A stretch of 64,000 nucleotides of DNA, from positions 22,145 through 86,144 of the forward strand of contig CAYXEO010000002.1 of the NCBI GenBank assembly GCA_964464055.1, read 5' to 3'. The position numbers and the translations under genes were made by a program. The notes beneath the pieces were generated by a model. The model was not told the DNA's origin and did no database searches. It saw only the letters and a list, made by a program, of their open reading frames with translations. This DNA comes from an uncultured Methanosarcinales archaeon (GTDB lineage: Archaea > Nanobdellota > Nanobdellia > Woesearchaeales > GW2011-AR9). Below are positions 22,716-63,534 of the stretch, piece after piece; position 1 is the first letter of the stretch; the number at the start of each line of letters is the position of its first letter.

Positions 22716-22970
22716 ACGCTGGAAAAAGAGAAGTTGCTTTAAAAAGATTTTGTTTTGTCATAAGTGAATTGTTGGCAACATAAAGTATTATTTCTTTTGT
22801 CCAAACTTTAATATATCTCTTAAAAAAACATAAAAAGTTAGATTGAAAAAGAGATATGTGCTTTAATTTTCAATAAAACATCCCTATCTAACTATTTATG
22901 TTCGTTTTGTACTCTTTTTGGAAACAAAACCTTTTTAAAAGAGCGAACTTCTTTTTATTCTAGTTGCATG

Positions 22971-23097
22971 GCGATGTAGCTTAACCTGGTCATAGCGCCA
23001 CGCTCATAAACATGAGCTATGAGACATTTTCGTCGATGACAAAAATTGGCTTATTGGGTTACGTGGAGGTTGGGGGCTCAAATCCCCCCATCGCCAT
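22971..23097 (+). tRNA. tRNA-Met/Ile2 (anticodon CAT) with a ~52-nt intron after position 37
   Basis: Acceptor GGCGATG/CATCGCC with discriminator A. Anticodon stem CCACG/CGTGG with loop CTCATAA. T-arm GGGGG-CTCAAAT-CCCCC. Intron ~23010-23061 pairs ATGAG with the loop CTCAT (relaxed BHB). Confidence 0.8.
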
Positions 23098-37029: not shown

Positions 37030-37143
37030 CGGGCCTGCGAAGATTTGAACTCCGGATCTACAGCTATCTTCAGAGTGATAAAAAATCATTTCTTTTTTCG
37101 CTCTTAGGAGGCTGTCGCCCTATCCAGGCTAGGCTACAGGCCC
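37030..37143 (-). tRNA. tRNA-Arg (anticodon CCT) with a ~39-nt intron after position 37
   Basis: Minus strand. Acceptor GGGCCTG/CAGGCCC with discriminator G. Anticodon stem ACAGC/GCTGT with loop CTCCTAA. T-arm CGGAG-TTCAAAT-CTTCG (one G.U). Intron ~37065-37103. Confidence 0.8.
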
Positions 37144-58303: not shown

Positions 58304-58335
58304 TTTATTTATTTATTTATTTATTTATTTATTTT
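58303..58335. repeat. (ATTT)8 microsatellite
   Basis: atttatttatttatttatttatttatttatttttt, directly after the ATPase stop. Confidence 0.85.
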
Positions 58336-58343
58336 TTAAAAAA

Positions 58344-58474
58344 GAAAACAAAGGTTTCCCCCCGCACCCCCCTTCCAAAACCATTTAATTCGCTAATGCT
58401 CATTCAATACTTTGGTTTAAAGAACAAAATAAAGAAGAAACAATTACAATAACACGCGCGCAAGCGCCCGCGCG
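58344..58474. repeat. composite intergenic element R1: gaaaacaaaGgtttCCCCCCGCACCCCCCttcc ... aacaattacaataac ... CGCGCGcaagcgccCGCGCG hairpin
   Basis: Sharply GC-rich islands in an AT-rich background. The opposite strand reads GGGGGGTGCGGGGGG. The CGCGCG/CGCGCG hairpin sits 3 nt beyond the cdc48 stop. Compare R2 at 63451-63534. Confidence 0.8.
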
Positions 58475-58477
58475 ACC

Positions 58478-60826
58478 TTAACCAAAATAGTCTGCTTTTT
58501 CTTCAATTTGTTTGGCTCGGGCAGAACTAAAATAATCTTTCAATTTCAGATAACTTTCTTGCACTTTTTCATCCACACTTGGTCGAACTATTTCCATCGC
58601 TTGATTAAAATGTTCCATGGTAACTTCTTTGGCATCAGTATTTTCTCGTAATGCGCACATGGCAGCTTCTCGACATACACCTTCAATATCGGCACCAACA
58701 TACCTCTCTGTTTTCCTAACTAACTCTGTAACATCAACATCTTTCATTGGTATTTTTTGTAGATAGATTTCAAAAATTTGTTTTCGACCTTTTTCATCTG
58801 CTACTGGTGTATAAATCATCTGGTCAAATCTTCCTTGTCGTAACAGTGCTGGATCAATCATTTTGGGTCTATTTGTTGCGGCAAGTATAATCACATCATT
58901 CATACTTTCTAATCCGTCCATTTCTGTTAATAAAGTATTAATTGCATCCATTCCGCTTGAGTTACTTTTATTCATTTCACTAAATTCTCTACTTGTTGCA
59001 ATAGAATCAAATTCGTCAAAGAAAATAATTGTTGGCGCTGTTTCTCGTGCCTTTCTAAATATATTTTTAATTATTCGTGGAGTTTCATTGACCCATTTAC
59101 TTAACAAACTAGGACCATTGACCAAAATAAAGTTAGCTTCACTTTCTTTGGCCACAGCTTTGGCAAGCAAAGTTTTCCCTGTGCCTGGTGGACCGTACAA
59201 AAGTACTCCTCGTGGTGGCCTAATTCCCAGTTGCTTGAACCTTTCTGGGTTTTTAAGTGGCCATTCCACAGCTTCTTTTAATTTGTTTTTAACATCTTGT
59301 AACCCGCCGATGTTTTCCCAACCAACTTCCGGTGTTTCAACCAAAACTTCCCGCATAGCGCTCGGTCTAACAACTTTAAGTGACTCTTTGAAATCTTTTT
59401 GTGAAACCATTAGTTTGCTTAATATCTCTGGTGGGATAGGTTGCCCCTCTTCAATACCTGCTTTTTTAAGATCGGGCAAAATTCTTCTTAACACTACCAT
59501 AGCCGCTTCTTTGGCCAAAGCGTTCAAATCTGCGCCAACGAAACCGTGGGTAACTTTGGCGATTTCTTTCATGTTAACTTTTTTGTCCAACGGCATGTTC
59601 CGAGTATGAATTTTAAGAACTTCTAACCTGCCTTTTTTGTCTGGAACACCAATTTCTATTTCTCTGTCAAACCTGCCTGGTCTTCTTAGTGCTGGATCCA
59701 AGACGTTTGGCATGTTGGTGGCCGCGATAACAATAACTTTCCCTCTGTTTTTTAGTCCATCCATAAGCCCTAACATTTGGGCAACAACCCTTTTTTCCAC
59801 TTCACCTTTAGTTTCTTCCCTTTTGGTAGCGATCGCATCAATTTCGTCAATGAAAATTATTGATGGTGCATTTTCTTCTGCTTCTTCAAACTTTTTCCGT
59901 AAATTTTTTTCTGATTCGCCGTAGAACTTGCTCATTACTTCCGGACCATTGATTAAAATAAAATGTGAATTTGTTTCACTTGCTACAGCTTTCGCCAATA
60001 AAGTTTTCCCTGTACCTGGCGGACCATGTAACAAGACTCCTTTCGGCGCTTCGATACCTAACTTCTCAAATATTTCTGGGTGTTTAAGTGGTAATTCGAC
60101 CATCTCCCTAACTTTTTTAATTTCGTCTCCTAACCCGCCGATATCTTCATAGTTGATACCTAAACTGATACTTTCTTCTTCTTTCTCTACTGCTTGAGGT
60201 CTGAAATCAATAAATGTGTCCTGGTTAACAACAACAATTTCTTGTTTCGGATCTGTACTAATAACTAACAATTTCAAATCACCGAACCCTAACCCGGCAA
60301 ATTGTTCTTCTAATGCTGAGAAGACATTATCTAACCCTTGGCTTTGGTTTTGTGACCCTTGAGATGGTTGTGGCATCCGCCTTTTAGCTCTCCCGAGCGA
60401 AACCAAATCCCCTTTAACTAACGCTTTACCCATTAACCCCTGCTTAAAAAATACTGGGTGAGCTTTGATCATGATACCTTTTTGTGCAGGCGCGATAGTG
60501 ATTTTCTTCGCCGGTTTAACTTTTGCTTTTTTGACAGTAACAATTTCACCGATAGATGTTTTAGCGTTCCTTCTGATGTTCCCGTCCATTCTAATTATGT
60601 TAAGTCCGATATCTCCCGGGTATGCTCGGTCAACTAAAGCCGCGGTTTTTCTTTCTCCGTTAATTTCTATGAAGTCACCAGGATTAACTTGGATTTGTTT
60701 CATTAAATTAGAATCAATTTTGACGATACCTTTGTTAACATCGTCCTGTACGGCTTCCATAACTTTAAGTTTCAGTTCTGGAGCAGAATTGTTTGTGTTA
60801 TCGTTTGTATTATTATCTATTGACAT
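58478..60826 (-). CDS. cdc48: CDC48/VCP/p97-like AAA+ ATPase (N-domain plus D1 plus D2)
   Basis: Two AAA cassettes, each with [20 protein letters not shown] and a second-region-of-homology/arginine-finger segment. The N-terminal double-psi barrel region. 782 aa. Confidence 0.9.
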
Positions 60827-60967
60827 ATACCTTCACCCGTTGGAGGTGGGAGTAAAGGTTTTATATAAATGTTATGAGTGGTTTGTGCCTGTCTTGTTTT
60901 TGTAAATGTTGTAAATTTGGTGTTTCTTATAGGAATATTCAAATAATATGGCGTTTTATAGCACCAT

Positions 60968-61178
60968 ATGACCACCACGATTCAAGTTAGCCAAGATTTA
61001 CTTTCTGAACTGAAGAGTAGAAAGATGTTTGAACAGGAACCTTATGAAGAAGTTATTTGGTGGAAAATATTTTCGGTTAAGAGTAGGTGATTATAGGGTG
61101 GTTTTGGATATTATTAATGATGTTTTAAGAATTCATGTAATAGAAATAGGACACAGTAAGAAAATATACAAAAAATAA
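60968..61178 (+). pseudogene. RelE/ParE-family toxin gene disrupted by a frameshift
   Basis: Frame 1 (60968-61090) reads MTTTIQVSQDLLSELKSRKMFEQEPYEEVIWWKIFSVKSR*. A shifted frame (61044-61178) reads MKKLFGGKYFRLRVGDYRVVLDIINDVLRIHVIEIGHSKKIYKK*. Spliced together they reproduce the RelE pattern (..L..L.K.......EP...+KL.G...yRLRVGDYRvvy.i.d..l.i..i.HR+.iYk). The frameshift is near 61041-61046. Confidence 0.6.
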
Positions 61179-61179
61179 A

Positions 61180-61722
61180 TTACGCAAGTTCTCTTTTAAG
61201 AATTTTATGCGCATTGTTGATTTCTTTAAATTTGTCTATGTCGCCACCGTCCATGTCTGGGTGATACTTTTTAGCCAAAACTTTGTACTTTTTGTTAATT
61301 TCTGCTAAATCTAATGACTCTTCTTCAATACCTAACAATCTCCTGGCATCTTTTCTTTGTTTTTCTATATCTTTATCTTCCATGAACACTCTTAAAAAAT
61401 CGTCAAGTGACTTTTGTCCAGATACAAACAGGTCAACTTCTTTCTCGATAACTTTTGATGCTACAAATAAGTTTTGTGCATAATTAAATTCTGGGTTTTG
61501 GTATGTGTAAAACATGTTTTGCCAATCGAAAAAGAATTCCACTTTTGCTGGGACTTTTCTGCTTGCTAACTTCGCCAGTTTAATTTCACAATCGTCTTCT
61601 GTTAATCCAATTTTTTTAAGTGTTTTAATAATATCGTTCTTGTACTGTTGAGACCTTCTTAGAAACGAATCTCTGATGGTTGCTAACTTGATTTCGTGCC
61701 CTTTAACTTTTATAATTGTCAT
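61180..61722 (-). CDS. J-domain protein (C-terminal DnaJ J-domain, HPD motif)
   Basis: The C-terminus INKKYKVLAKKYHPDMDGGDIDKFKEINNAHKIL is a canonical J-domain helix II-III with HPD. The N-terminal ~110 aa are of unknown function. Confidence 0.7.
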   Translation of the reverse strand: MTIIKVKGHEIKLATIRDSFLRRSQQYKNDIIKTLKKIGLTEDDCEIKLAKLASRKVPAKVEFFFDWQNMFYTYQNPEFNYAQNLFVASKVIEKEVDLFVSGQKSLDDFLRVFMEDKDIEKQRKDARRLLGIEEESLDLAEINKKYKVLAKKYHPDMDGGDIDKFKEINNAHKILKRELA

Positions 61723-63345: not shown

Positions 63346-63450
63346 TTTTCATTATTAATTGGTGGTTACTAATTATTTAAAGCCACCCCTTATAAAGCTA
63401 TGGGGTGTTTTTGTGTTGAAAATTGACAAATTACTAACAAACAAAAAAAA

Positions 63451-63534
63451 GAAAACAAAAGTTTCCCCCCGCACCCCCCTTCAAAAATAAAGAAAAAACA
63501 ATTATAGAAACCCGCGCGCGCCAGCGCTCGCGCG
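63451..63534. repeat. composite intergenic element R2: gaaaacaaaAgtttCCCCCCGCACCCCCCttc ... aacaattatagaaac ... CGCGCGCGccagcgctCGCGCG hairpin
   Basis: Same motif order and orientation as R1 with a shorter spacer (33 versus 82 nt). An additional TTCGCGCGAA palindrome lies at 63578-63587. Confidence 0.8.

Follow-up and report, generated by a model that had tools for sequence, protein, structure and literature searches.

Solved members of the RelE/ParE superfamily of toxins (PF05016) include E. coli RelE (4V7J/4V7K, 4FXE), M. jannaschii RelE3 (3BPQ) and 2KHE, with P. horikoshii aRelE PHS013 (1WMI) as a further solved RelE relative. A complete RelE domain has the order beta1-alpha1-alpha2-beta2-beta3-beta4 and spans ~80–95 aa. 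Cleavage of mRNA by E. coli RelE depends critically on three residues, R61, R81 and Y87 (PMC2807027). The archaeal antitoxins of relevance here fall under the models DUF7557 (PF24434) and VAPB_antitox (PF02697); DUF7557 was mentioned in no paper found in a literature search. Truncation and erosion have been described as a common fate of chromosomal toxin–antitoxin (TA) loci, and in Photorhabdus TA pseudogenes usually take the form of shortened toxin ORFs or of DNA remnants, most decay there being reported as a two-step process that starts with the toxin and only later reaches the antitoxin (Belot et al. 2026, PMC13617665).

The locus described here shows likeness to each of these systems and falls short of all of them. 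With the RelE/ParE superfamily it shares the YFRLRVGDYR...GHxKxIY core in its C-terminal 43 residues, but compared with intact toxins it retains positions 39–83 of 83 only and carries Ser at the equivalent of R81. Since half of the fold is missing and the R81 equivalent is Ser, we treat this stump as a gene fragment rather than as a member protein. With the archaeal antitoxins it shares the TTIQ strand motif, K19, Y26, V29 and W31 in its upstream frame, as well as an upstream stretch that aligns with their promoter/operator motif, albeit with changes at invariant bases, but residues 32–72 (ERLxED...ELSEETKK...G..T.E.VKKELG) are missing. Unlike the eroded loci of Photorhabdus, a single boundary-spanning deletion appears to have hit both genes at once, and the host is an AT-rich archaeon rather than a gamma-proteobacterium. 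The locus is otherwise an ordinary eroded type II TA locus and holds nothing that would surprise a specialist.

The window, by which we mean the whole 64-kb stretch of DNA that was analysed, contains two short overlapping frames on the plus strand at this locus, as the sequence-only reading had noted. ORF1 (60968–61090) encodes 40 aa (MTTTIQVSQDLLSELKSRKMFEQEPYEEVIWWKIFSVKSR). ORF2 (61029–61178) has two candidate starts, a TTG that would give 49 aa and the ATG at 61044 that would give 44 aa. Gene callers list the shorter form (61044–61178). ORF2 lies in the +1 phase relative to ORF1 (61044 - 60968 = 76). To the left, cdc48 lies on the minus strand with its ATG at 60826, leaving a 141-nt intergenic region; to the right, the stop end of a 180-aa J-domain gene, also on the minus strand (61180–61722), adjoins the locus. 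The G+C content of the remnant is 30 %, compared with 34 % for the window. Our preferred reading, to which we give a probability of roughly 90 %, is that this is the non-functional relic of a type II TA operon that underwent one ~259-nt deletion across the boundary between its two genes. The earlier proposal of a decaying RelE/ParE-type TA locus with an inactivated toxin is thus upheld, while most of the details attached to it are revised below.

The toxin remnant occupies 61047–61178 on the plus strand and consists of the C-terminal 43 codons and the stop (KKLFGGKYFRLRVGDYRVVLDIINDVLRIHVIEIGHSKKIYKK), as defined by a local toxin profile and by Pfam. The local profile, built from 54 close toxins, matched 61041–61175 over positions 39–83 of 83 with 71.7 bits (E = 4.3e-21, computed for the 1694 six-frame ORFs of the window). 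Against PF05016 (ParE_toxin), ORF2 scored 23.4 bits over profile positions 54–89 of 89, clearing the cut-off of 23 marginally and on the C-terminal third of the model. The RelE signature that had been recognized from the letters therefore held for the downstream frame, whereas the upstream frame did not carry it.

Database comparisons placed the stump among full-length toxins, of which it represents the last 43–45 of ~84 residues. The nearest database proteins to ORF2 were intact RelE/StbE toxins of 83–85 aa at 60–69 % identity, and a scan of metagenome contigs returned 80 loci with intact toxin relatives of 82–86 aa at up to 74 % identity, the stump being 69–74 % identical to residues ~42–84 of intact toxins of that length. 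An exhaustive phmmer search of 1.84 billion representative proteins gave 241 matches; the best 149 had a median length of 84 aa, and it was to their C-terminal halves that the stump aligned. Short C-terminal RelE fragments of the same subfamily also occur, with 16 of these 149 best representatives being shorter than 60 aa, and examples including P0247 (50 aa) and P0249 (63 aa). Some of these may be similar remnants and others contig-edge fragments.

The extent of the missing fold was assessed on an intact relative, P0002, which aligned over its full length to 2KHE, 4V7J/4V7K/4FXE and 3BPQ (E = 1e-09 to 1e-03). In its AF2 model (pLDDT 84), beta1, alpha1 and alpha2 comprise residues 4–33 and three more strands residues 51–75. 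The stump corresponds to about residues 44–85 of P0002 in this model, that is, to beta2–beta4 and the C-terminal tail, so that beta1, alpha1 and alpha2 are missing and the domain is incomplete. The Arg of the GHR motif, which is present in 53 of the 54 relatives and aligns with E. coli RelE R81, is Ser in the stump, leaving the R61 equivalent (R of GDYR) and the Y87 equivalent (Y of KIY) as the only retained members of the R61/R81/Y87 set. Four further substitutions (P49K, L72H, K75E and Q65I) had been considered abnormal, but this was seen only against a more distant subfamily. None of the four residues (K, H, E and I) is out of the ordinary among closer relatives, which leaves the R-to-S change in GHR as the only abnormal one.

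The sequence-only reading described the toxin as an orphan with no antitoxin visible. It was found instead that the first 31 codons of ORF1 are the N-terminus of an antitoxin gene. This antitoxin remnant (MTTTIQVSQDLLSELKSRKMFEQEPYEEVIW; 60968–61060, plus strand) comprises codons 1–31 of ~72 and corresponds to the N-terminal DUF7557/VapB-antitoxin-like part. Residues 1–31 of ORF1 matched positions 1–31 of 72 of a profile of 53 antitoxins, all encoded directly 5' of RelE relatives, with 49.7 bits and E = 2.5e-14 against the 1694 window ORFs. An independent profile of 122 more distant antitoxins gave E = 3.9e-07 for ORF1 and 0.41 for the next window ORF, and BLASTP of ORF1 against the antitoxin of the relative L001 aligned Met1 to residue 30 (E = 3e-08 as a single comparison). 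Counted by hand, 21 of 31 residues are identical to the L023 antitoxin (MTTTTIQVSKDLLEDLKSRKMYDKESYEDIIRDLLED...). ORF1 had no match to either toxin profile, at E <= 10 in one search and E <= 1 in the other.

The Pfam DUF7557 model aligned to ORF1 over positions 1–28 of 45 (E = 0.015) at 15.2 bits, below the 25-bit cut-off. It is the purpose-built profiles that establish the homology to the family; the intact antitoxins themselves score 22.7–25.6 bits against the same cut-off, and ORF1 spans nearly all of the ~32-residue region that DUF7557 sees in them. The family pattern at the start of ORF1 is MxTTIQ[IV]S..L..LK.RK.Y.KESYEEVIWDLLED..., and the invariant positions T3, T4, I5, Q6, L15, K19 and Y26 are all kept. 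Past residue 30/31, the invariants E31, R32, L33, E35 and D36 (ERLxED) are all mismatched, and the profile alignment to antitoxins stops at position 31. Within the stump, the residues Q26 and P28 are unusual, all relatives carrying K/R and S/T at these positions. The remaining tail of ORF1 (WKIFSVKSR and stop; 61061–61090, plus strand) is toxin DNA read out of frame and has no antitoxin homology.

The arrangement expected of an intact module was taken from the relatives. The antitoxin family has 292 database members, which match DUF7557 and VAPB_antitox and carry the JGI label 'predicted CopG family antitoxin'. In at least 58 of the 80 intact-toxin loci, an antitoxin of 72–80 aa ends -7 to +13 nt from the toxin start, and in L001–L005 an antitoxin gene of 72–82 aa beginning M(V/A)TTIQ adjoins the 5' side of the toxin gene with a 1-base overlap. 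At our locus, codons 1–31 of ~72 are all that remains of the antitoxin gene directly upstream of the toxin. A cognate antitoxin elsewhere had also been suggested as something to look for; profile searches and six-frame ORFs revealed no second copy of either the antitoxin or the toxin gene in the 64-kb window, the antitoxin stump being ORF1 itself. No solved-structure relative of the antitoxin was detectable by sequence. AF2 folded an intact antitoxin into a single long helix with a pTM of 0.31, and this model was considered too unreliable to define domain boundaries. A different state of decay or rearrangement, the mirror image of the remnant in the window, was seen in the relative L029 (358–768 and 765–1031), in which the toxin is intact and the upstream ORF consists of the C-terminal part of the antitoxin (...ELSAQTLANIKKSEADIKSGKVKTLAEVEARLRR) joined to unrelated N-terminal sequence.

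The two homologies meet within a few codons. Antitoxin homology runs out at W31 (61058–61060), the octapeptide SYEEVIWD being found exactly in the antitoxins of L042 and L099 (...SYEEVIWDALED...). Toxin homology opens at the first K of KKL (61047), in the family motif VKKLVG. The Met codon at 61044 was counted as antitoxin DNA because none of the 54 relatives has M at the conserved Val column of the toxin. The 14-mer between these limits (AAGAAGTTATTTGG; 61047–61060, plus strand) encodes a family motif in either frame, (E)EVIW as antitoxin and KKLFG as toxin, and it is here that we place the deletion junction. The junction was mapped at the level of protein profiles; a MAFFT global DNA alignment to L001 and L002 left the ~260-nt gap unopened and aligned only the 3' half of the toxin gene.

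The size of the missing segment was obtained from the intact relatives. In nine of them, the sites equivalent to the junction lie 259 nt apart (266 minus a 7-nt offset). The module of L026 is 479 nt long compared with 211 nt here, and the difference of 268 nt becomes 259 once three codons of L026 that have no counterpart here, one for Thr and two at the C-terminus, are subtracted. As 259 leaves a remainder of 1 when divided by 3, a deletion of this size shifts the toxin frame from its native +2 offset relative to the antitoxin frame to the +1 that is observed, and the frame offset is thereby accounted for. Missing are antitoxin codons 32–72 (~41) and toxin codons 1–40 (~40). These comparisons establish what each stump is, how much has been lost and where the junction lies, and they indicate that a single internal deletion of ~259 nt brought the beginning of the antitoxin gene into contact with the last part of the toxin gene.

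Reading the locus as a deletion relic suggests the following course of events. The ancestral operon would have consisted of a promoter/operator, a ~72-aa antitoxin gene and a ~84-aa RelE-type toxin gene, the two genes sharing a few bases at their boundary. One deletion would then have taken the 3' two-thirds of the antitoxin gene, including the presumed toxin-neutralizing region (codons 32–72), together with the 5' half of the toxin gene, whose lost codons 1–40 would have encoded beta1, alpha1 and alpha2, and the two stumps would have been fused out of frame (+1). The dual coding of the junction, in which each frame yields a family motif, suggests that short direct repeats mediated the deletion, and the junction is probably the single surviving copy of such a repeat. 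Slippage or illegitimate recombination at a repeat of the type AAGAAGTTA... could have produced it, with the antitoxin EEVIW codons and the toxin KKLVG codons as putative sources, one base out of register. The repeat and the ancestral sequence are reconstructed rather than observed, no intact allele having been found at the locus, and in present-day relatives the two repeat sites share only 8–9 of 14 bases. Loss of both partners in one step may have been a tolerated exit from the addiction module, since the toxin would have been destroyed at the same moment as the antidote.

The region upstream of ORF1 was compared with that of 21 non-redundant intact relatives, in which the motif ATTTAWAWA-CTATAGC-N4-TATATAG-N5-ATG is kept 5' of the antitoxin gene. 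We read this motif as a putative TATA box and two half-sites on a leaderless operon, leaderless mRNA being implied by a TATA box only ~25–30 nt from the ATG. The paired (C)TATAG half-sites are the likely, predicted binding site of the antitoxin. Across the relatives L023–L102, this conserved promoter/operator was visible ~40 nt upstream of each antitoxin ATG. In the window, alignment to the 21 relatives identified a putative, degenerate remnant of the TA promoter/operator at 60937–60967 on the plus strand, with a TATA-box equivalent (TTCAAATA; 60938–45) at 23–30 nt from the ATG, a distal half-site ATATGGC (60946–52) and a proximal half-site TTATAG (60956–61). Two changes affect invariant bases of the motif, TTTA having become TTCA and TATAG having become TATGG. 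The ~140-nt gap, previously assigned to the cdc48 promoter only, thus contains 31 nt at its distal end that align with the promoter/operator of the TA family.

The combination of a stump lacking half of its fold and the R81-equivalent Arg with a promoter altered at invariant bases suggests that the 40-aa and 44-aa ORFs are without function. The alternative that survives best, although we consider it unlikely, is that the remnant has been co-opted, with ORF1 acting as a small repressor at a CTATAG-type operator or the 44-aa peptide being active. Both small ORFs are still open, ORF1 keeps every invariant of antitoxin positions 1–30, and upstream of it a TATA-like element and the proximal half-site TTATAG can still be recognized, so that some residual DNA-binding by ORF1 is conceivable. 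The 141-nt intergenic region is moreover common to the locus and cdc48, and a variant of the proposal would allow an effect on the divergent cdc48 promoter 80–110 nt away. The antitoxin past position 31 is, however, replaced by out-of-frame sequence with the loss of ERLxED, the distal half-site and TATA box are altered at invariant bases, Q26 and P28 are unusual within the antitoxin stump, and the toxin stump is without beta1, alpha1 and alpha2 and has lost the R81-equivalent Arg; nor is there a divergent orthologue to show conservation. The specific version in which ORF1 would be a domesticated mini-repressor, a DNA-binding module left over from the antitoxin N-terminus, expressed from a leaderless transcript, bound to the residual TTATAG operator and modulating cdc48 in a reduced archaeal genome, is more doubtful still.

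Very little probability was assigned to the proposal of the sequence-only reading that the two frames together rebuild a full-length orphan RelE/ParE toxin gene, split by a single-nucleotide frameshift near 61041–61046 and without an antitoxin. The frames do overlap, their summed length of ~70 aa is near that of RelE, and the start of ORF1 (M-T-x-x-I-x-x-S) loosely resembles the toxin start MTYEIIFS, both forming a beta-strand followed by a helix. This resemblance is outweighed by the profile results above, in which ORF1 missed both toxin profiles and matched the antitoxin profile. The spliced ORF1+ORF2 protein, offered earlier as a check, did match PF05016 (24.7 bits), but over positions 41–89 of 89 only, and just 24 codons precede the toxin homology where ~40 would be required. 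A tblastn match had also appeared to extend the toxin homology back to 61017 ('VERC', 61017–61028) and to place 'ERC' in the toxin frame. This extension was discounted because the same DNA encodes the conserved antitoxin codons LKSRKM, of which 'ERC' is the +1 reading, one base out of frame. In place of a frameshift, the deletion junction at 61047–61060 accounts for the two frames.

Public data were used to determine whether the deletion allele is real. The identical 44-aa ORF is present on at least 18 public contigs. Ten contigs from ten samples (five JGI, three Logan and two ENA) were compared and were 100 % identical over 60827–61180 (354 nt) and 99.6–100 % identical to the window overall, with SNPs occurring only outside the locus at 60035, 61380, 61916 and 62191. 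The deletion allele is therefore real and fixed in the sampled population. The further suggestion that one or more intact genes are hidden behind a phase-variable indel or an error in sequencing or assembly had nothing in its favour beyond the existence of two frames and can practically be dismissed, since the ten independent contigs are identical across the locus, the sequence at the junction holds no homopolymer or short tandem repeat, and ~259 nt rather than one base are gone.

The available copies are ~99.9 % identical and differ at no position within the locus, which is too little variation to date the remnant or to estimate dN/dS. The J-domain protein was used to look for synteny in 185,579 species genomes, and no intact module turned up at an equivalent site. 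The J-domain relatives recovered were 42–52 % identical, came from DPANN-like archaeal MAGs and had a radical-SAM-like gene at this place rather than cdc48 or a TA module. Taken with the intron-containing tRNA genes of the window, the origin of these relatives points to a host that is probably an archaeon with a small genome, perhaps DPANN/Nanoarchaeia-like. Within the J-domain gene itself (61180–61722, minus strand), the SNP at 61380 is a C-to-A change found in contigs L009 and L010, for which a 114-aa ORF was called instead of the 180-aa gene (plus a 52-aa ORF in L010). This suggests a nonsense polymorphism in the J-domain gene.

For annotation, the consequence is that the 40-aa and 44-aa 'hypothetical proteins' on at least 18 public contigs are stumps of one relBE-like operon, and the remnant should be annotated as a pseudogene rather than as an orphan toxin. 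As a relic of a single, probably repeat-assisted deletion, the locus would provide a clean example of one-step TA loss across the antitoxin/toxin gene boundary, and of a way in which a cell can survive the loss of an 'addictive' module. The survey of relatives additionally identifies the archaeal proteins that match DUF7557 as upstream partners of RelE toxins, and yields a conserved, predicted leaderless promoter/operator of the form TTTAWAWA-CTATAGC-N4-TATATAG-N5-ATG.

The wider surroundings of the locus include two GC-rich direct repeats at 58338–58474 and 63445–63532, 5.1 kb apart, which flank cdc48, the remnant, the J-domain gene and a DEAD-box helicase gene. They share a core (GGTTTCCCCCCGCACCCCCCTTC) found with 0 and 1 mismatches in the two copies, where none is expected by chance, and a second module, a CGCGCG hairpin, follows the core; only two copies occur in the 64 kb. 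Each repeat lies just 3' of a minus-strand gene, namely cdc48 and a CheR-like gene, and on the minus strand can be read as a G-rich hairpin with a T-run behind it, the z-scores of the fold being -2.9 and -2.5. No Rfam match was found for the repeats. The sequence-only reading had taken the repeat-bracketed block as a sign of past mobile-element residence; with housekeeping genes between them and a position 3' of minus-strand genes, the repeats are unlike the boundary of a mobile element and look more like shared 3' end or terminator elements. Other possibilities are a shared 3'-UTR element and a small RNA.

The P-type ATPase gene and cdc48 converge on a (TTTA)n microsatellite at 58305–58335. 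Its length varies in the population, an indel at this site separating contig L006 from the window. Elsewhere in the window, Rfam identified tRNA genes at 22970–23096 (127 nt) and 37030–37143 (114 nt) that were missed by ARAGORN. Both are probably interrupted by introns, as would fit an archaeal genome.
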